Shown: positions 30,027 to 39,165 of the stretch, one piece after another
Layout: every line of letters starts with the position of its first letter
How positions within the stretch are numbered: position 1 is the first letter of the stretch
Source: Alphaproteobacteria bacterium
GTDB lineage: Bacteria > Pseudomonadota > Alphaproteobacteria > Rs-D84
Reading direction: 5' to 3'
DNA: 64,000 bases
NCBI GenBank assembly: GCA_017630405.1
Contig: JAGBVH010000015.1
Span: 81,026-145,025, forward strand
Notes under the pieces: model-generated
What the model was told of the DNA's origin: nothing
Database searches by the model: none
Seen by the model: only the letters and a program-made list of their open reading frames with translations
Translations under genes and position numbers: made by a program

Positions 30027-30075
30027 AAAACAACTGGAATTTTTCATAAATATATTCTACAGTCACAACCAGCCC

Positions 30076-30113
30076 GCCGGTGTAGCTCAGCTGGTAGAGC
30101 ATCTCATTCGTAA
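30076..30113 (+). pseudogene. tRNA-Thr(CGU) 5' fragment (acceptor 5' strand, D arm, 5' anticodon stem, anticodon loop)
   Basis: GCCGGTG TA GCTC AGCTGGT AGAGC A TCTCA TTCGTAA. The following sequence AGTCAGTCGG cannot pair with TCTCA. The matching 3' part lies at 36621-36665. Confidence 0.85.
30107..30113 (+). repeat. attL core TTCGTAA (the tRNA anticodon loop)
   Basis: Identical 7-mer at 36621-36627. Confidence 0.7.
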
Positions 30114-30179
30114 AGTCAGTCGGCAAATTTCCTAACCTATTGATTATCGTTGGATTTTAAGTTGTTTTTATTAACCAAA

Positions 30180-30317
30180 GGGACAATGCGGGGACATTTT
30201 TTACAAAAAAATGCAACAATTTGCATATATGTACAACACAATCTGATGTTGCTGCACACACTTAAAAACCGACTAAAATTTATGTGTTTTGCAGTGTAAT
30301 TGTCCCTTGTTTGTCCC
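30180..30317. repeat. left-end cluster of GGGACA / TGTCCC motifs (candidate integrase arm-type sites)
   Basis: GGGACA at 30180-30185 and 30191-30196. TGTCCC at 30301-30306 and 30312-30317. GGGACAAT (30180-30187) and ATTGTCCC (30299-30306) form an inverted pair. Confidence 0.5.
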
Positions 30318-30446
30318 TGTATATAAATCAACCTATCAAAACTAGCATATTATCGGGATTTTTTGGTGGTTAGTCATCTCATTGTATATGTTGAAATCAC
30401 CAAAAAACATCCTATATATTAACCAAATACAAAAGGATTATCCAAG

Positions 30447-31496
30447 ATGGCAACAATAGAAAAGCGCAAGAGTGGAGATGGTTTTGTTTATCGTGCACGT
30501 GTGCGTGTAAAGGGTGCTGAGCCCAGAACAGCGACATTCCCAAATAAGACACTTGCCAAGGCCTGGGCACAGAAGATAGAAGTCGAAATCAAAGAAGGGC
30601 AGTATATGCCCAGCATTCAATCACAAAAACGCACACTGGGCGAAATAATAAGCATTTACAAAGAAAGACATAATCCACTATCAATCACAACATCTGGACA
30701 GCTGGATGTATGGAACGAACAAATGGGCGCATGCAGTTTGAATATGATAACGCCAGACCGTATCTATAACACACTAAAAACGATAGAATCTATAACAACA
30801 CACAATGGACAACCAAAGTCCGCCAGCACATTAAACAGATATTTGGCGGTATTAAGTTCTGCATTAACTTTTGCAGTTAAAGAGTTGGGGTGGATGCGCG
30901 AAAATCCAGCCTTTAAAGTATCACGACGTAACGAGCCAAAGGGACGCGTCAGATTCTTGTCGGATGACGAACGCAACAGATTATTGACCGAGATACAAAA
31001 AGCACCAAACCCATTTTTATACCCAGCGGTTATATTGGCGATTTCAACAGGGGCAAGACGTGGCGAGATATTAAACCTAAAATGGGCAGATGTTGACTTA
31101 CATCGTGGCTGGGCAACGCTGCAAGACACCAAAAATGGCGACAGACGTGGTATTGCGTTGCGTGGTCTGGCATTAGACCTGATGCGCCAACTGTGGGCAA
31201 AGAGATTATCTAACATCTGGGTATTTCCAAACGAAACAAACTCTGGACCATTTAATATCAGATACAGCTGGAACAAAGCGGTTCGTGATGCAAATCTGAT
31301 AGATTTTAGATTTCACGACCTGCGACATACGTGTGCCAGCTATTTAATTATGAACGGTGCATCCCTGGGCGAAATTGCGGACGTTCTGGGACACAAAACA
31401 TTGCAGATGGTACAACGATATGCTCATATATCAGACAGCCACAAGGGTGGTGTTATTGAACGCATGAACGATAAAGTTTTCGGAGAATCAAAATGA
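30447..31496 (+). CDS. int: tyrosine-type site-specific integrase
   Basis: Catalytic signature ARRGEILNLKWADVD (R), FHDLRHTCAS (H-x-x-R), LGHKTLQMVQRYAH (H...Y). N-terminal SAM-like domain. Confidence 0.92.
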   Translation: MATIEKRKSGDGFVYRARVRVKGAEPRTATFPNKTLAKAWAQKIEVEIKEGQYMPSIQSQKRTLGEIISIYKERHNPLSITTSGQLDVWNEQMGACSLNMITPDRIYNTLKTIESITTHNGQPKSASTLNRYLAVLSSALTFAVKELGWMRENPAFKVSRRNEPKGRVRFLSDDERNRLLTEIQKAPNPFLYPAVILAISTGARRGEILNLKWADVDLHRGWATLQDTKNGDRRGIALRGLALDLMRQLWAKRLSNIWVFPNETNSGPFNIRYSWNKAVRDANLIDFRFHDLRHTCASYLIMNGASLGEIADVLGHKTLQMVQRYAHISDSHKGGVIERMNDKVFGESK

Positions 31497-32161
31497 CACA
31501 ACAATTACCTTTTGCCGATATTTTTCCACACTTGCATCCAATGCAAAAATTCACACAGTCCAACTATCCAATACTAGCTGATATTTTATTGGAATACGCA
31601 CAAGATTTGGCACACTATCGTGAAAACTATCTAGATGCCGACAGAATTACTAACGCACTGGATTGGATAAAACAACATGGCGATTTAGACCATAAAACAA
31701 TTAAATGCATCATCAAGCATTTTTGCATTCTTGACTTTAAATCAGATGTAAAAATTCAGACCCATAACAAACAATGGATTGTATGGTTATTCGTTATTGG
31801 TGCTTTCATCCTGATAAATCAAGCAATAGAAAATGACGACATCAATACCGTTAAAAGTGATATTCAAACATGCTTAAAAAACGCACATGACTATAAAAGA
31901 TTGTGGGGCGAAAGAAAAGGTCGTTATAAAGGCGCAAGCAAGACAAACGCCAAGAAAGCTGAAATAAAAAAAACAGTGCTAAAAATAACACGAGAAACAA
32001 ACAATGCAAACCCCGCCAAATCCGATGATGAAAAACTAATCATCATAAAAAACAAATTTAAAAAAACATCCCCCAACAGGGATTTCCCTTACAAAGATTC
32101 TAGTTTTACTAGAAACGATGACGCAAACATGTTTGCCCAGGCTGCAAAGCACAAGCCATAA
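31493..32161 (+). CDS. hypothetical protein (222 aa) with one central hydrophobic helix and Lys-rich C-terminus
   Basis: ATGA overlap with int. WIVWLFVIGAFILINQAI helix. No family recognised. Confidence 0.45.
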   Translation: MTQQLPFADIFPHLHPMQKFTQSNYPILADILLEYAQDLAHYRENYLDADRITNALDWIKQHGDLDHKTIKCIIKHFCILDFKSDVKIQTHNKQWIVWLFVIGAFILINQAIENDDINTVKSDIQTCLKNAHDYKRLWGERKGRYKGASKTNAKKAEIKKTVLKITRETNNANPAKSDDEKLIIIKNKFKKTSPNRDFPYKDSSFTRNDDANMFAQAAKHKP

Positions 32162-32266
32162 AGCCATCACGCTAGCGTTATGGGCAACCGCCTTGATAGG
32201 CGGTATTTTTGCATATATATTTGCCATGAATCCGGATTCGAACAATATCAAAATAAGGAGAAAAAT

Positions 32267-32497
32267 ATGGCAGAAATTGTGCCCAACTTTAAAACAATTC
32301 GGCAATTTGCTGAATCTTATCCTGCATTTACGCAGGGCTCGTTGCGTGATTTGGTGTTTTATGCGGACTATAACGGATTAAATCAATTTGATGCAATCCG
32401 TCGTGTCGGTGCAAAGATACTAATAAACGTTGATAATTTCTTTCGGTGGGTTGATACAAACCCTGCAAGCAAAGGAGGGTTAAATGCAAGAATTTGA
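32267..32497 (+). CDS. excisionase/AlpA-like helix-turn-helix DNA-binding protein (76 aa)
   Basis: Strong SD AAGGAG 7 nt upstream. KTIRQFAE...LRDLV....IRRVGAKILINVDNFFRWV matches the ..GR(K/R)(I/W)LI......W pattern of excisionase-family HTH proteins. The track start at 32180 is judged too early. Confidence 0.5.
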   Translation: MAEIVPNFKTIRQFAESYPAFTQGSLRDLVFYADYNGLNQFDAIRRVGAKILINVDNFFRWVDTNPASKGGLNARI

Positions 32498-33548
32498 CCC
32501 ACAATACGAAAGTGATTATCTGGACAACATCACAGGCGATGATGATATGGACAACACCGTTCAAAAACCGAACATCTTTTCTGTTGGCGATTTATTGGAC
32601 ATGGATTTACCAGAAATCAAATGGCTGCTGTATCCATTTATTCCACAAAAGGGTGTTTGTATGATTTCCGCACCACGCGGTGTCGGGAAATCGTTCTTGG
32701 CGATGACAATGGCTATTTCAATCGCATCATCTATTGACTTTCTGGGTTTCAAAACGGAACAACAATACAAAGTCCTTTATATAGATGGCGAAATGAACGG
32801 CAAGATGCTGCAAGAACGTTTTTCTAAGCTGATTGACGGCATGGAAAAAGATGGCGCAACTGTTAATCGTGAAAATCTAAAAATATTCGGATGCGATTTT
32901 CAGGGTCGTTCATCTATGCCAGATATGTCAAAGCCAGCGCACTGGCGTATCATAGAAAACGCTATCAACAGCATTGGCGGTGTTGACCTTATCATTCTTG
33001 ATAATGTGTTTACCCTGTACGGTTGCCAGGATGAAAATGCAGCATCCAGCTGGCAGGCATTTAACCGATGGTCTGTCAGCCAGCGCATACAAAATCGTTC
33101 TGTCTTGTGGATACACCATACGGGCAAGGATACAGAAAAGGGCGGACGTGGTTCGTCAGCGATTGAAACGCTGATGGATTCGTCCATACTGCTAAAAAGG
33201 CCTGCTGGATATAACCAACAAGATGGCGCAGCGGTTGTTGTAGAATACACAAAAAGCCGCAGCGTTGCTGGCGATGCGGTTGCAAAATTTGCAATCAAAT
33301 TGTGTGGCACAGATAATATACTTTATTGGACAGTCGCAAAAACAGACGAGCAGTCCGAATTGGACGACTTGTTGGATTTTGTCGATAACAAAGGGATGGA
33401 CGTGTCGGAAATCTCAAAAGAAACAGGTATGTCCAAATCTGCACTTTATCGAAAATTCCAGGCAGCTGGAATAAAGGATGTATCCGCACGCGCAAAGCTC
33501 GCCAAACAAAAACAAGCTGAAGACACAAAATCTTTAATTGATATTTAA
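32484..33548 (+). CDS. RepA-like RecA-fold ATPase (AAA_25-type) with C-terminal HTH
   Basis: Walker A ISAPRGVGKSFLAMTMAISIA, Walker B LIILDNVF, WIHHTGKDTEKGGRGSSA sensor region, and C-terminal MDVSEISKETGMSKSALYRKF. Confidence 0.65.
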   Translation: MQEFDPQYESDYLDNITGDDDMDNTVQKPNIFSVGDLLDMDLPEIKWLLYPFIPQKGVCMISAPRGVGKSFLAMTMAISIASSIDFLGFKTEQQYKVLYIDGEMNGKMLQERFSKLIDGMEKDGATVNRENLKIFGCDFQGRSSMPDMSKPAHWRIIENAINSIGGVDLIILDNVFTLYGCQDENAASSWQAFNRWSVSQRIQNRSVLWIHHTGKDTEKGGRGSSAIETLMDSSILLKRPAGYNQQDGAAVVVEYTKSRSVAGDAVAKFAIKLCGTDNILYWTVAKTDEQSELDDLLDFVDNKGMDVSEISKETGMSKSALYRKFQAAGIKDVSARAKLAKQKQAEDTKSLIDI

Positions 33549-33635
33549 TAGCAAGAAAAATCCCATTTTCCCACCCTATTAAGGTACGGGAAAATGGGAA
33601 TTGTGTTTTTGTCCGTTTTTTGTGGATAGTTTTAA

Positions 33636-33896
33636 TCAAATATACTTAGGTTTGCTCTGACGTGGTTCTGTCCGGTATAATTCTTCTGCAATTCTATAAC
33701 TTTCTTTTACTACATAGTTTAATGCTTCTTTTTCTGTTGTGAACCTTCCCACTTCACCACCAGCAACAATAACGACATATTCTATCCCATTAGGTATAAC
33801 AATGTACATTTTTGATACTTCTTTAGCCTTATTATACAGCCAACGTTCTCGTTTCGCTGTATTCACAATCCCCCTAGCCATATTTATCAACCCCAT
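33636..33896 (-). CDS. hypothetical small protein (86 aa)
   Basis: ORF in the minus-strand cargo block. No motif recognised, and the start is uncertain (internal MYIVIPNG possible). Confidence 0.3.
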   Translation of the reverse strand: MGLINMARGIVNTAKRERWLYNKAKEVSKMYIVIPNGIEYVVIVAGGEVGRFTTEKEALNYVVKESYRIAEELYRTEPRQSKPKYI

Positions 33897-33931
33897 ATTA
33901 TTCCTCCTTATTTACAGTATAAACATTTTAG

Positions 33932-34135
33932 TTACCACTCTTCTATTAACATATAAATCCAGCATAAAGCTAGCCAAGCTACAATGGACCACACTCCACT
34001 TCGAAACAATATTTTTATTACTTTACCAACAACCTGGGATTCTTTAACTGTTGTCCCGGCGTTCTTAAAACCACGGCCAATTTTATAAAAAAATCTATCA
34101 ATTGCGTTCTCTGGAATATGTTCTTTTTTCATCAT
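33932..34135 (-). CDS. hypothetical small membrane protein (67 aa)
   Basis: C-terminal TM helix VWSIVAWLALCWIYMLI. Starts 3 nt after the stop of the upstream gene. Confidence 0.35.
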   Translation of the reverse strand: MMKKEHIPENAIDRFFYKIGRGFKNAGTTVKESQVVGKVIKILFRSGVWSIVAWLALCWIYMLIEEW

Positions 34136-34138
34136 TCA

Positions 34139-34912
34139 CTACCTTGTTTTAGATGCCAGAATCATACAAAAAACAAACAACGCTATATAAATCATAGAAA
34201 ATACAGGTGCGTCAAATATTGCAACCAAAACACTAACTATGCCGCCGCATATAACAATATGCTTACCGGTTTCTCTATCGTGTTTACGTGCAATAGATGC
34301 AGGTATAAAAAACAATAACATTCCACCTAGTATGCGACCTAAAATTATCGCCGATAGTTTTGTGTCTTTTTCCGTTATATCCGTATACGAAACATGGGTT
34401 GTTTCACGAAGTTTTTGTTCCGCTTCTTCTGATAGTATGGGTGAAGCAATGTCTGAAACAATTTTACCCGGGACATTTATGGAAGAACGAACTATCCCTT
34501 GCGCCATAGACTCTTTTTGTTTTGAGCCAAGCGTTTTATATCCAGCCCAATCCATATCCTTAACACCATCAACATTATTTACAAACAAAAGCATTGCTTT
34601 TTGCATCTTATTCTCGTGCGTGTTTTCTATTGCTATCGGTTTTACTGGGCTATACTTTACTTTTAAATATTTGTGCGTTCTGTCGTCTGGCAGGTCTGCA
34701 TACAGCTTTCGACCCGGACTTACGATACCGCCAGTATAAGGCATGCCATCATCAGGATTGTCTGTTATTACAACACCACGTTTTTCATTCATTGGGATTT
34801 CTGCCCATCTGCCGTCTTCATACACAACCCTACGCTCCAGTGAGATAGCGGGTGTACATAACGAACCAATTAACAAACACACAAAAAGCATATTGTGTAT
34901 AATCTTATTCAT
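34139..34912 (-). CDS. hypothetical exported protein with C-terminal multi-TM anchor (257 aa)
   Basis: Start at MNKIIHNMLFVCLLIGSLCTPAIS (signal peptide), preceded by a GGAG SD. The C-terminal third has about 3 TM helices. The track ORF extends to 34978 across a terminator hairpin. Confidence 0.45.
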   Translation of the reverse strand: MNKIIHNMLFVCLLIGSLCTPAISLERRVVYEDGRWAEIPMNEKRGVVITDNPDDGMPYTGGIVSPGRKLYADLPDDRTHKYLKVKYSPVKPIAIENTHENKMQKAMLLFVNNVDGVKDMDWAGYKTLGSKQKESMAQGIVRSSINVPGKIVSDIASPILSEEAEQKLRETTHVSYTDITEKDTKLSAIILGRILGGMLLFFIPASIARKHDRETGKHIVICGGIVSVLVAIFDAPVFSMIYIALFVFCMILASKTR

Positions 34913-34929
34913 TTTTGCTCCATTTATAT

Positions 34930-34959
34930 AAAAACAACCGCCATGGGAATTATGGCGGT
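34930..34959 (-). terminator. intrinsic terminator abutting the SD of the 34139..34912 gene
   Basis: 8-bp stem ACCGCCAT/ATGGCGGT (34937-34944 / 34952-34959). The minus strand reads hairpin, then TGTTTTTAT, then AAATGGAGCAAAAATG. Confidence 0.55.
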
Positions 34960-35365
34960 CGGGTGCTTTCAAAATCATAACATGAATGACCCTGTTGCTT
35001 TCGGATAAATCCTATTATATAACAACAGACACCCGGCCAATAAGGTCAGGCAATAACGGTGCGATGCACCATAATGGAATCACGATGCAAACGCACCGCA
35101 TGTTATGGGGTTTGAAAGCCCCGAATCCAATTCCCATCGGATTCATATCTAATTATATCAGGAAAATATGCAAATGTAAAATTTTGATAACCATACTATG
35201 CACCACCCTAAAATTTTTGATGGGGGACCTAGGGGTATCAAATTATAAAGAACAACAAACAATCCCCATGCTAACGCACAGAGATTGTTTCAATGACGAC
35301 TATTAAAATGGTCTGACTATATTTGCCTACACAGCATGCTATCTGCTAAAAAATTAACAATCGTT

Positions 35366-35722
35366 TTAATTTTTATAAAAATACTGCAACGATATTTTCC
35401 AAAGTGCGAACACTTCTGCAAGAGACCCTAAAATAAAACTCACTTGACCAGCAACAGGGAACTCAAGACAACCTGCACCAATTAAAACAAAAACAATACC
35501 TGTAAATACCAGCCACACTATGGATAAAACAACCAAAACCCATGATATTTTATTTCTTATTTTTCTGTTTTCGTCTTGGATGCGATATTCAAGTCCACGC
35601 TTGTACGAATCAAATTCTTCTTTAGAAAATTTCTGCTGATAATCTTTTGGGTCTTTACGAATCCCCTTTAAACCTTTATCTAACAAAGACCCTAATTCTT
35701 CAGAATAATTTTTGATACCCAT
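35366..35722 (-). CDS. small 2-TM protein (118 aa), candidate toxin/effector partner of the Panacea-domain gene
   Basis: Soluble charged N-terminal half, basic stretch RKIRNK, then two TM helices (ISWVLVVLSIVWLVFTGIVFVLIGAG and VSFILGSLAEVFALW). The start codon directly follows the stop of 35723..36223. Confidence 0.45.
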   Translation of the reverse strand: MGIKNYSEELGSLLDKGLKGIRKDPKDYQQKFSKEEFDSYKRGLEYRIQDENRKIRNKISWVLVVLSIVWLVFTGIVFVLIGAGCLEFPVAGQVSFILGSLAEVFALWKISLQYFYKN

Positions 35723-36223
35723 CTATTTACTCCAAAGGTCTTCAAACTCTTTCTTCATATCTTCTTCAGATATAACACAGCTGTTTCTGTTGTTAGAATA
35801 TACTTTTTTCCACGCAGAACCATCTCTATGAGTAAGCCCAACAAGCTCCCAATCTTTAATGTTTTTTGTCATATTGGCAACAGCATCTATGAAAGCACAC
35901 TCATCTTCGCTGCAAGATGTTAAATTTTCACCAAACGCTATCTCAGGAATATAGTCAGAACCAAAAAACTTAAATCTTTGATAAACTTCTGGAACAACAG
36001 GTCCATATTTCCAGGCCTGAATCTCCGCATTGAATAGATGTTTGCCATTTCGAAGTCCCAAAGACAAAACCTGTGCAATATAAAGAATTTTTTGCAAACG
36101 CAAATTCGTTACTTGCCATTTCTGGCTTTCACAAATCTTTTTTGCAACCTTAAACACATCACACATTTTCGCTGACCTGGGGTTATATTTACCGTTTCTC
36201 TCTTTGAGAGAATTATACCACAA
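35723..36223 (-). CDS. Panacea / DUF4065 (SocA-GepA-like) domain protein
   Basis: LRLQKILYIAQVLSLGLRNGKHLFNAEIQAWKYGPVVPEVYQRFKFFG matches the characteristic KLQKLLYYAQ...F.AW..GPV.PEVY..FK..G core. An alternative start MCDVFK lies at 36166. Confidence 0.7.
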   Translation of the reverse strand: MWYNSLKERNGKYNPRSAKMCDVFKVAKKICESQKWQVTNLRLQKILYIAQVLSLGLRNGKHLFNAEIQAWKYGPVVPEVYQRFKFFGSDYIPEIAFGENLTSCSEDECAFIDAVANMTKNIKDWELVGLTHRDGSAWKKVYSNNRNSCVISEEDMKKEFEDLWSK

Positions 36224-36254
36224 ATGGCAAAAAAAATCAATACAAATGATATGA

Positions 36255-36330
36255 TGGTGCCGGTGATAAGACTTGAACTTACGACCTTTGCATTACGAAT
36301 GCACTGCTCTACCAGCTGAGCTACACCGGC
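36255..36330 (-). tRNA. tRNA-Thr (anticodon CGT), complete, carried inside the element
   Basis: The reverse complement reads GCCGGTG TA GCTC AGCTGGT AGAGC A GTGCA TTCGTAA TGCAA AGGTC GTAAG TTCAAGT CTTAT CACCGGC ACCA. The first 26 nt are identical to the split host gene. Confidence 0.9.
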
Positions 36331-36397
36331 AACATCGGGCAGTATATCCTATCATCAAAACAATTTCAAGCATCCGTTTTAGGATTTTATAAAATAA

Positions 36398-36501
36398 ATT
36401 GTCCCCTGACGGAAACTGACCAAAAACACATGAATAAAGCAGCCATAAACATCCACCAGCAAGCAATCCAGCGCAATCTGGCCAGGGACACTATAGGGAC
36501 A
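36398..36501. repeat. right-end cluster of TGTCCC / GGGACA motifs (candidate arm-type sites)
   Basis: ATTGTCCC at 36398-36405. GGGACA at 36485-36490 and 36496-36501. Confidence 0.45.
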
Positions 36502-36620
36502 AAACGCTGCATAAACTGCAGCGAATTACAATTAGCTACAATCATAAAAAAACAACAAAAACCGCGGTAATCCGCTTGATTTTTGTTGCAGATTGTTGTA
36601 GATTACACATAGTGCTATCC

Positions 36621-36627
36621 TTCGTAA
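36621..36627 (+). repeat. attR core TTCGTAA
   Basis: Direct repeat of 30107-30113. Confidence 0.7.
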
Positions 36628-36665
36628 TGAGGGGGTCGCAGGTTCAAGTCCTGTCACCGGCACCA
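36621..36665 (+). pseudogene. tRNA-Thr(CGU) 3' fragment (anticodon loop, 3' anticodon stem, variable loop, T arm, acceptor 3' strand, CCA)
   Basis: TTCGTAA TGAGG GGGTC GCAGG TTCAAGT CCTGT CACCGGC ACCA. TGAGG pairs with TCTCA, and CACCGGC with GCCGGTG, of the 30076-30113 fragment. Confidence 0.85.
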
Positions 36666-36673
36666 TAATTAAA

Positions 36674-36695
36674 ACGCCCATTTGGGCGTTTTTTA
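36674..36695 (+). terminator. intrinsic terminator of the (split) tRNA-Thr gene
   Basis: Hairpin ACGCCC-ATTT-GGGCGT followed by a T-run. Confidence 0.7.
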
Positions 36696-36753
36696 TTTTT
36701 TTATGGTAAAAAATATGATAAAATACAAGGGATATAATGTATGGGGGATTATA

Positions 36754-38112
36754 ATGTCCAAGGAAATAAAATATTATTTTGACAAATCACAATATCTTTA
36801 TCATAAGGCTGACAGACCGTCGGTGGAAACAATTGGTGTCATAGTTTATTCTGGTGTTTATGGTCGGGGATATCATCCAGACAAAGATAAAGGTGTTGAA
36901 CTCGATCCTTTTAATCAAAGAAATGTACTGAAACATGTTTCGGAATATGTATCCAAAAATGTGACCAAAATAAAGTTTTCCAAGGATATGTCGGTCAATG
37001 ATGCTTTACATGTTATTTATACCCAGATTGGCAATCCAAAAGAAGAAGAAAAAATAGACAAGCTGATTCATGAACATTTTGCCAAATTGAAAGTCTATAA
37101 TGAAAAAATGGTCGATTATGAAAGTTATCGTAACCTGATTAATATGGTCGAATACTATACGCCAGAGGGTATAAGGGCGATGGTCAATGGCGAAAAGTAT
37201 CCTTTAAAGGCCGCAGTACATGATTTTGCGCGCGGTGTGGACAGAAAGAAGTTTCAGGCTTCTTTTGACAAACTACCTACTTATTTAAAACGTCGTTTTC
37301 GCAGTTTGTGTGAAAAGAATAACTATGTATTAACCGATGATTTATTATCTCAGGATTTTAAGCCGTTGGCGCTTGACCGTTTAAGGCCGACAATGGATGA
37401 TGGTATTAGTGTTGATGCTTTGATTGGGCGTACCGCCGATGAATTCTTGCGCGATGCGGCCAAATACAAGTATTATAAATTAACTGGTAATATGGATATC
37501 TTTTTATCAAAGTTCGAACAGATGTCCATAGACGCTATGTCTGATCATGAACTGGCAATAAAGTATGGTGCTTATGCGACCCAGCGTTATGAAAACGCCC
37601 TTATTGTCAAAAAACATATAGAATCCCTTGCGGAACAAAATAAAGACATATCGAATTTCATTGGCGAATTGTATAATTACAGTGTTCGCGCCACAACCAG
37701 TTATTGTAATCCAGATATTGTTCGAATGATGTATGAAACAATAAAAAAGTACAACAACAAGTTCAAGCAATCCAAACAGGTTATGCAGTATATGGGACTG
37801 TTGTACAATGTGACATTGGATGGCAAACTTCGTCGTGATATTTCCGAAACATTTGGAATCAAGCCGGATGAAACCCGTGCGCGTACCAAAATGTCAAAAC
37901 AACGCGTTAAGCAATCATTAAGAAAAGCGGAAAAGCGTATATCTTCTGGTGATTATGTTTTTGATGGCGCTGTTCAGCAAGAGGTTATAGCACTAGAAGA
38001 AAAATATGGTATGAGTTCTGGCCCTGAAACATTTGGCAAGGTCAAGAAACTGATCAAGCCAACGAAAACGCAAATGAAAATAGCAAAAGAGTTTTCGGAA
38101 CGCAGCAAATAA
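36754..38112 (+). CDS. hypothetical protein (452 aa)
   Basis: Start at MSKEIKYY, preceded by GGGGGA. Lys/Tyr/Asn-rich, with no catalytic motif recognised. The track ORF begins at 36682. Confidence 0.5.
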   Translation: MSKEIKYYFDKSQYLYHKADRPSVETIGVIVYSGVYGRGYHPDKDKGVELDPFNQRNVLKHVSEYVSKNVTKIKFSKDMSVNDALHVIYTQIGNPKEEEKIDKLIHEHFAKLKVYNEKMVDYESYRNLINMVEYYTPEGIRAMVNGEKYPLKAAVHDFARGVDRKKFQASFDKLPTYLKRRFRSLCEKNNYVLTDDLLSQDFKPLALDRLRPTMDDGISVDALIGRTADEFLRDAAKYKYYKLTGNMDIFLSKFEQMSIDAMSDHELAIKYGAYATQRYENALIVKKHIESLAEQNKDISNFIGELYNYSVRATTSYCNPDIVRMMYETIKKYNNKFKQSKQVMQYMGLLYNVTLDGKLRRDISETFGIKPDETRARTKMSKQRVKQSLRKAEKRISSGDYVFDGAVQQEVIALEEKYGMSSGPETFGKVKKLIKPTKTQMKIAKEFSERSK

Positions 38113-38116
38113 AACA

Positions 38117-38140
38117 ACCGCCCAATGGGCGGTTTGTTTT
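38117..38140. terminator. bidirectional intrinsic terminator between convergent hypothetical genes
   Basis: Hairpin ACCGCC(C)-AAT-(G)GGCGGT followed by TTTGTTTT. Confidence 0.6.
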
Positions 38141-38146
38141 ATTTAC

Positions 38147-38977
38147 TTATTTTGTTTTTGCTTTTTGTAATTCGGCTGATATTTCGTTTGCAAGCTGTTT
38201 GATACGCGCTGCTTCTTGTTCGGCATATTGTGCATCTACTGCAATCTCGATAGCTGCCTGAACATATATCATCAGCTCAACAGGAATCGAGCCAATCCTT
38301 TTACAAAGAGGCCCGGCCTGTGTTTGAGTCTTTTTATAGATTGCGCCATCTTCGGTTATATGATAATTGCCGACAGTTGTTGTTATAAACGTTGTATCTT
38401 CTATAGACAAAGTCTGATATTTTTTAATTTCTACAACTTTTATCAATTCCAACAAATCGCCTAATCCTGCTTTGATGAATTTGTCTTTTATTTTTGGATT
38501 GGCGTTGATTATATCTTCGCGTGCTGCTTTGAATGCTGCTTTGAATTCAGCATCGCGTATTTTTTGTCTCTCGATTTCTTCCTGGCGCGCGATTTCGTCT
38601 TTAGCTGCCTTTACCATATCTTCATAGGCTTTGATGCGTGCTTTACCATTTTTCTGCGCACTGTCTGTCATCTCATTAAATATCACACCAGGTAAACTAT
38701 ATGCGGCGTGAAAATCGTCTTGGATAATCTTCCAATTACGTTTTCGTGCAGAACGTTTTTCTGAGGCATAATCCTCGCGCCAACAAGGGTTGTTGGTACG
38801 ATATTCCTGGTCAGGTTTTTTTGGGAAATGACCTTTTTTAATTAAGTCCGCGACGGATACTGTGCAACCAACTGCCGGTGCAATTGCAAATGTTGTCACA
38901 GCCACAATAACGGCACCACTAGTATACAAAACTTTTTCCGCGCCGTTTTTCCATTTAATCTTTGTTATTTCTTCCAT
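38147..38977 (-). CDS. hypothetical protein with N-terminal hydrophobic segment and central coiled-coil (276 aa)
   Basis: VLYTSGAVIVAVTTFAIAPAVG hydrophobic segment. Charged helical stretch KAAKDEIARQEEIERQKIRDAEFKAAFKAARED. No family recognised. Confidence 0.5.
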   Translation of the reverse strand: MEEITKIKWKNGAEKVLYTSGAVIVAVTTFAIAPAVGCTVSVADLIKKGHFPKKPDQEYRTNNPCWREDYASEKRSARKRNWKIIQDDFHAAYSLPGVIFNEMTDSAQKNGKARIKAYEDMVKAAKDEIARQEEIERQKIRDAEFKAAFKAAREDIINANPKIKDKFIKAGLGDLLELIKVVEIKKYQTLSIEDTTFITTTVGNYHITEDGAIYKKTQTQAGPLCKRIGSIPVELMIYVQAAIEIAVDAQYAEQEAARIKQLANEISAELQKAKTK

Positions 38978-39132: not shown

Positions 39133-39165
39133 ATGAAAAAACAAGCAATAATTATTATTAAATAA
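39133..39165 (+). promoter_or_regulatory. candidate ileS leader peptide ORF MKKQAIIIIK
   Basis: ATG AAA AAA CAA GCA ATA ATT ATT ATT AAA TAA. Four consecutive Ile codons in 10 codons, upstream of a terminator and ileS. Confidence 0.45.

Follow-up and report, generated by a model that had tools for sequence, protein, structure and literature searches.

The island in this window (the whole 64,000-nucleotide stretch of alphaproteobacterial DNA that was analysed) lies inside a host tRNA-Thr(CGU) gene and carries an entire, inverted tRNA-Thr(CGU) gene of its own. This raises the question of whether the carried gene stands in for the one that the island splits. We think it likely that it does, as a replacement copy carried by a non-phage island that follows the strategy described as tRNA-dependent lysogeny in phages.

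The split host gene and the layout of the island

Both parts of the host gene are still present at the island ends (Table 1), and when joined at TTCGTAA they give a normal 76-nt tRNA-Thr(CGU) fold. These 7 bp of the anticodon loop are the only sequence common to the two junctions. ARAGORN called no tRNA at either island junction, and beyond the core the attL side continues as AGTCAGTCGGC..., which is not tRNA-like, leaving the host gene unrestored there. The attL half is identical in sequence to the intact gene in many species of the genus. The attR half reads TTCGTAA TGAGG from 36621 and terminates in CACCGGCACCA at 36665; a 3′ part matching the tRNA was found at 36634-36665 (+). As its T stem varies with the host species (GCAGG/CCTGT here, GTAGG/CCTAT in G109, G064 and G160), the attR half is host DNA. 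The island thus has a tyrosine integrase (Pfam PF00589) and an attB that overlaps a host tRNA gene, with halves at both ends. It is not a canonical target-regenerating island under the Islander definition (PMC4383910), since no junction restores the split tRNA.

Several other readings of the junction sequences were considered and rejected. A match to Rfam HPnc0260 at 36628-36782 is explained by the tRNA 3′ half read in antisense. The idea that the island ends are decayed tRNA halves was not supported on the integrase side, where only about 7 of 11 T-loop positions match. On the tRNA side it would rely on a TTGTTG-rich segment, which is a feature of attP in this family, as relatives that do rebuild their target also have it. 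The joint 30106->36621 occurs in two DNA runs, with sides that span only 23-30 nt; it originates from intact tRNAs of other species and does not represent an empty site of this strain. The predicted attP junction (GTGCTATCC-TTCGTAA-AGTCAGTCGGC) had no exact match in the assembled collections of viral or metagenome contigs.

The island comprises 6514 bp (30114-36620 plus one core copy). A circular form would run from the outward-pointing tRNA through about 290 bp, the core and about 335 bp to int, which would also point outward. Of the 26 copies of GGGACA/TGTCCC in the window, seven lie in two stretches adjoining the island ends. The position of such paired repeats is conserved in all members of the integrase family, and their motif is lineage-specific (GGTCCA, GGGGCA or GGTGCA elsewhere), which fits candidate arm-type integrase sites.

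Table 1. Features of the island and its junctions (positions in the window)
Feature	Position	Strand	Remarks
Host tRNA-Thr(CGU) 5′ part (attL)	30076..30113	+	acceptor strand, D arm, TCTCA, loop TTCGTAA; core copy 30107-30113
GGGACA/TGTCCC repeats, n = 4	30180..30317		between core and int; candidate arm-type sites, int side of attP
Tyrosine integrase (int), 349 aa	30447..31496	+	Pfam Phage_integrase 4.2e-29; PHROG 1 integrase 9.9e-69
222-aa protein (orf222)	31493..32161	+	overlaps int end; no family match; homologues follow int in some relatives
Small protein	32180..32497	+	about the last 80 aa conserved; no family match
RepA/helicase-like ATPase (AAA_25)	32484..33548	+	Pfam AAA_25 9.7e-29; PHROG primase/helicase families
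Three cargo genes (86, 67, 279 aa)	33636..34978	-	no family matches
118-aa membrane protein (orf118)	35366-35722	-	partner of Panacea antitoxin
Panacea-domain antitoxin (panA)	35723-36223	-	Pfam SocA_Panacea 1e-18
tRNA-Thr(cgt), 76 nt	36255-36330	-	ARAGORN call; Rfam tRNA 68.7 bits (gathering score 29), E = 8.9e-14
Promoter-like site TTGAAA-17-TATACT	36341..36369	-	10/12 consensus matches; ends 10 nt before tRNA first base
GGGACA/TGTCCC repeats, n = 3	36400..36501		candidate arm-type sites, tRNA side of attP
Host tRNA-Thr(CGU) 3′ part (attR)	36621..36665	+	core copy 36621-36627, TGAGG, variable loop, T arm, acceptor strand, CCA

The small protein is encoded downstream of int in every family member, either directly or after orf222 (35-98% identity, tblastn), a position that suggests a candidate excision or regulatory factor. 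The two genes just downstream of the tRNA, on the same strand, are a predicted toxin-antitoxin pair of the PanA/PanT type (35366..36223) with a separate promoter-like site (36240..36212), and the order tRNA-panA-orf118 recurs in the G032 island. Pfam and PHROG searches found no virion, structural, lysis or transfer genes on the island, nor were close relatives of the integrase found in viral contigs. At 6.5 kb, with nothing but int, a RepA-like ATPase, a toxin-antitoxin pair and genes of unknown function, the element is not a temperate phage.

Other observations concern expression at the locus and its surroundings. No terminator-like site was seen between the host tRNA 5′ half and int (30040-30446), so transcription that starts at the host tRNA promoter could continue into int after integration; int also has a promoter-like site of its own (30391-30420). 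An sRNA-Xcc1 match at 34949-35038 (-) stays below the Rfam gathering score (44.5 bits against 53; E = 1.6e-5) and lies just upstream of, or overlaps, the start of the 279-aa cargo gene. Between attR and ileS are two orphan genes (476 and 276 aa, 36682-38977) that may represent a second insertion; they have no counterpart in G032, G033 and G035, where ileS follows within about 200 bp of the tRNA. A short Ile-rich leader ORF precedes ileS (MKKQAIIIIK, window 39133-39165) and recurs as MNKKAIIIIK in G035 (L024, 10185-10217), MNKKTIIIIK in G163 (L073) and MNKNTIIIK in G003 (L072, ~1288-1317), followed in G035 and G163 by a GC-rich hairpin and a T run.

The island tRNA gene, its linkage and its origin

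The first-pass annotation of the window had described an intact minus-strand tRNA-Thr(CGU) inside the element near attR, identical to the split host gene in its first 26 nt, acceptor stem and anticodon loop and yet a distinct allele in its anticodon stem, variable loop and T arm. It had also held that the element does not rebuild its target at a junction. All of these points stand, the last on the strength of the 7-bp core and the missing junction tRNA. The island gene is one of three tRNA genes called in the window. Set against the rejoined host gene, it has differences at 11 of its 76 positions: three on each strand of the anticodon stem (27-29 and 41-43), one in the variable loop (44) and four in the T stem (50, 52, 62 and 64), the latter forming two compensatory pairs. 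Its first 26 nt occur at two sites in the window, 36305-36330 (-) and 30076-30101 (+). As this segment is conserved throughout the genus, it is no sign that the copy derives from the present host.

Across eight alleles of the genus, 6 of the 22 cloverleaf pairs changed on both sides and none was broken. In Escherichia coli, the identity elements for threonyl-tRNA synthetase are G1-C72, C2-G71 and the CGU anticodon; the island allele retains all of these together with an encoded CCA. The compensatory stem changes and the upstream promoter-like site are signs of a working tRNA gene, as far as can be judged from sequence. Only 4-6% of the sequence words sampled were present in metatranscriptome runs, and no contig from these runs aligned to the window at 97% identity.

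Relatives show that the tRNA belongs to the island and not to the host, as the first-pass annotation had assumed. Most species of the genus have an unbroken plus-strand tRNA-Thr(CGU) with the TCTCA/TGAGG stem between gidA and ileS, and no inverted copy was found in the element-free relatives, where this gene is intact. Three other species carry the island at the same gene, two with an integrase 99% identical to that of the window (G109 and G064) and one with an integrase 76% identical (G160). The cargo tRNA is identical at 76 of 76 positions in all four islands, each from a different species, even though the host halves vary between these species and the DNA around the tRNA in G160 is merely 51-73% identical to that of the window. 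This identity against diverged flanks and host halves indicates that the tRNA is the island's own and strongly constrained. In addition, a 13.7-kb contig from an unrelated sample has the arrangement 5′ half, island, 3′ half with different flanks, and near-identical islands were present in metagenome-assembled genomes (MAGs) from goat and yak colon.

It is therefore extremely improbable that the inverted tRNA was ancestral in the host or arose as an artefact of assembly, given its linkage to the island across species and in an independent contig. An ancestral origin could draw on G035 and G179, which lack an island but have, between gidA and ileS, a tRNA-Thr(CGU) in minus orientation whose anticodon stem is the same. 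However, these genes have the T loop TCCGACT and flanks unrelated to those of the island, and species with the host allele have an intact plus-strand gene and nothing inverted. The identical tRNA in islands of four species speaks against ancestral DNA as well, and the recurrence of the layout in independent assemblies speaks against an artefact.

Chromosomal genes elsewhere in the genus indicate that the carried alleles come from the genus's own pool. In G032, the island tRNA is identical (76/76) to the syntenic chromosomal gene of G033, with unrelated flanks, and the Ser allele of the G132 island has the anticodon stem of the chromosomal gene in G097. The GTGCA anticodon stem was found in 7 of 257 species of the genus, comprising four islands and three chromosomal genes without an island: G035 (L024, C3), G179 (L064, C37) and G204 (L068, C1). 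These three share the GTGCA/TGCAA stem and a T loop with C at position 55. The gene is inverted relative to gidA and ileS in G035 and G179, and the G035 copy has a C1-C72 mismatch. We rejected G035 as an island remnant, because its allele and odd T loop recur in G179 and G204, where there is no island, in both orientations and with unrelated flanks.

The genome that contains the window is a MAG of 1.05 Mb in 30 contigs, 97.8% complete. A whole-assembly ARAGORN scan found 47 tRNA genes, among them Thr genes for UGU (C4:422-497), GGU (C12:16104) and the island CGU; a permuted tmRNA is also present. Within this 30-contig, 97.8% complete assembly, ARAGORN and a pattern scan identified the island copy as the only intact CGU gene, and no second one was found. 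The suggestion of the first-pass annotation that this could be the only CGU isoacceptor left was thus correct for the assembly, and the disrupted host tRNA is single-copy in it. A tRNA-Thr(UGU) normally reads ACG too, and ACG makes up only 12.8% of Thr codons (8 per 1000 codons), which softens the need for a CGU tRNA.

Species that seemingly lack the gene do not demonstrate that it is dispensable, as these absences coincide with contig breaks at the locus (G003, G163 and probably G124, where the ileS end lies at a contig start). The G003 contig start (L072, G003:C1:1-142) lies inside an island with a G032-type attR, and the 5′ half and cargo tRNA are missing from this two-contig assembly. Islands with inverted tRNA repeats seem to break assemblies and can mimic the absence of a tRNA. 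As the locus tends to break in this way, tRNA inventories of MAGs are open to misreading.

Probable compensation for the split gene and the integrase family

In the proposed mechanism, the tyrosine integrase would use TTCGTAA as a 7-bp overlap for recombination with the anticodon loop of the only tRNA-Thr(CGU) gene of the host. As the tRNA sequence of attP would stop at these 7 bp, integration would leave two dead halves. The island tRNA gene, which has its own promoter-like site, lies about 290 bp from the core on the side opposite int and is transcribed away from the core; it would then stand in for the host gene. On excision, the host halves would be joined again and the spare tRNA would leave with the island. 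This scheme presumes that the island tRNA is expressed, charged and needed, and that the island is still mobile, all of which we infer.

The first-pass annotation had instead raised addiction-like stabilisation, in which the host comes to depend on the island tRNA and cells that lose the island are penalised. That the island holds the sole intact CGU gene would suit such a role, yet reverse recombination at the 7-bp core would rebuild the host gene exactly, and the normal route of loss would therefore carry no penalty. A tRNA-Thr(UGU) isoacceptor is also present, a dedicated toxin-antitoxin pair adjoins the tRNA, and compensation accounts for the phage counterpart (PMC10865867). We therefore did not uphold the suggestion and regard addiction as unlikely; compensation that makes integration tolerable is the better reading of the copy. 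Addiction keeps some force against imprecise deletion only, mainly for the related Thr(UGU) and Ser(GCU) islands of G097 and G132. These contain the sole intact genes of their kind, so that cells losing them by random deletion should die.

Full-length relatives of the integrase were present in 17 other species of the genus, and their loci were mapped for tRNA genes and tRNA fragments (Table 2). A cognate cargo tRNA was found in all eight non-rebuilding islands and in none of the seven rebuilding ones (Fisher exact test, ~1.6e-4, with loci that are not independent). Cargo thus goes with the target as well as with an unrebuilt junction, as predicted for a compensating spare part. The perfect co-occurrence also gives indirect support to the idea that viable integrants would require the tRNA of the element. 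In the six genomes scanned (G109, G064, G160, G032, G097 and G132), the island copy was the sole intact gene with its anticodon. As only Thr(UGU) reads ACA and only Ser(GCU) reads AGY, the substitute should be indispensable in G097 and G132.

Table 2. Islands of the integrase family by target and tRNA content
Genome	int identity to the window	Target	tRNA on island
G000 (window), G109, G064, G160	100%, 99%, 99%, 76%	Thr(CGU)	identical whole Thr(CGU), inverted
G032	63%	Thr(CGU), 10-bp core	third allele, inverted, ~370 bp inside attR, then panA pair
G097	77%	Thr(UGU), core TTTGTAA	inverted whole Thr(UGU), no differences from rejoined host gene
G132	47%	Ser(GCU), 13-bp core	inverted whole Ser(GCU), a distinct allele
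G169	52%	Thr(UGU)	whole Thr(UGU), own promoter, direct orientation, ~300 bp inside junction
G136, G073, G116, G126		Thr(UGU)	rebuilders, no extra tRNA
G107, G027		Asn(GUU)	rebuilders, no extra tRNA
G076		Gln(CUG)	rebuilder, no extra tRNA

In the integrase tree, the non-rebuilding type occupies three separate, well-supported places. The first is a clade of G032 with G097, G160 and the group of G000, G109 and G064; the second is G169, within a Thr(UGU) clade of rebuilders; and the third is G132, which lies outside both clades on a long branch, its exact placement being uncertain. The tree suggests at least three origins of the whole-gene solution. Distant integrase relatives outside the genus have the canonical layout, with an intact tRNA directly upstream of int.

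One Thr(UGU)-targeting clade includes three solutions, with core polarity opposite relative to int. G136 (L030, C11) and G073 (L031, C6) supply the 3′ half and a terminator, G028 (L029, C8) apparently supplies a promoter and the 5′ half, with the host 5′ half dead at the far end, and G169 (L032, C1) supplies the whole gene in direct orientation. G097 (L027, C1:440524-455524) and the window (30100-30130 and 36600-36630) have conserved attP arms in common (GTGCTATCC / core / A(G/C)TCA…). A one-base change in the overlap (TTTGTAA in G097, TTCGTAA in the window) accompanies the switch of target and cargo from Thr(CGU) to Thr(UGU).

The tRNA could also be carried for a different reason, for instance to supply codons or to evade anticodon nucleases, with the match to the target a by-product of capture. 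The island allele departs from the host gene chiefly in the anticodon stem, chromosomal counterparts of island alleles exist in other species (G033, and the stem of G035, G179 and G204), and an anti-defence role has been raised for the phage tRNAs (PMC10865867). Against this stands the recurrence of the association: it spans three isoacceptors and arose at least three times, and every non-rebuilder but no rebuilder has a cognate tRNA. Furthermore, the G097 copy is identical to the host gene, so an altered stem is unnecessary. We consider this explanation very unlikely. The identity of cargo and target in G097 likewise weakened the idea that anticodon-stem divergence shields the cargo from the island's own integrase.

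Compensation therefore remains our preferred reading, and it might be taken further, although here we are tentative. Int, attP and an adjacent whole tRNA could form a portable cassette with no target homology to carry, which a one-base overlap change and a cargo swap would retarget, and for which the essential single-copy tRNA genes of ~1-Mb genomes would be landing sites. If this were true, islands would shuttle tRNA alleles between species, and G097 and G132, with their only Thr(UGU) and Ser(GCU) genes on islands, would depend on the island against imprecise loss. The int-attP-tRNA unit could also be put to use as a compact tool for integration, a use already proposed for its phage equivalents.

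Comparison with known systems

Integration into tRNA genes has reportedly been divided into sublocation classes by Williams in 2002, and HP1 is a tRNA-targeting phage that crosses over in the anticodon loop. The present island resembles canonical elements in its crossover in the 7-nt anticodon loop and in an integrase with arm-type sites (candidates here), and seven members of the same integrase family behave canonically. In canonical islands, one junction has a restored tRNA gene, completed by sequence that the island brings (Islander, PMC4383910). The attP of such elements includes the 3′ (rarely the 5′) part of the tRNA, from which the gene is regenerated, whereas the present island does not do this. 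Island finders that need a regenerated tRNA and a displaced fragment will therefore miss such elements or misplace their boundaries. A single integrase family here presents the solutions side by side: the 3′ half rebuilt, the 5′ half apparently rebuilt, and the whole gene supplied in either orientation.

Closer cases are the Lo5R7ANS-like prophages of Sinorhizobium meliloti, also an alphaproteobacterium, which integrate in tRNA-Leu(UAG) (PMC11476347), and prophage Lj965 of Lactobacillus johnsonii, cited as a similar case in PMC10865867. In these, integration in the middle of the tRNA inactivates the gene and the prophage brings a cognate tRNA resembling those of other species. They are full prophages and single cases, in contrast to the family-wide pattern with several isoacceptors found here.

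The closest counterpart is tRNA-dependent lysogeny in actinobacteriophages such as Fionnbharth, LeBron and Gaia (Guerrero-Bustamante & Hatfull 2024, PMC10865867). Its hallmarks are a tyrosine integrase, a tRNA attB, a core whose shortness prevents the gene from being rebuilt, a host tRNA present in single copy and an element that carries the cognate tRNA; phage relatives rebuild or do not, target switches go with cargo switches, and several origins are reported (PMC10865867). The island has all five hallmarks, and its Thr(UGU) and Ser(GCU) relatives also carry a cognate tRNA. In both systems the tRNA is not rebuilt (common core of 8-17 bp in the phages and 7 bp on the island) and the element tRNA is the only one left with its anticodon. 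Close relatives are split between rebuilding and not rebuilding, cargo follows target, and the origins are several and independent. Because the island matches the published phages in this way, the strategy itself is already known. The systems differ in that the actinobacteriophages are temperate phages, whereas the 6.5-kb island has no virion genes and hence involves no lysogeny decision. The host is a gut alphaproteobacterium with a reduced genome of ~1 Mb, essentiality is doubtful in the CGU case, and the island is known from sequence alone. In all members of the island family, the tRNA lies directly beside attP, opposite int, whereas the phage tRNA lies elsewhere in the genome. Overall, the family extends tRNA-dependent integration from temperate phages to small non-phage islands in the reduced genomes of uncultured gut Alphaproteobacteria.
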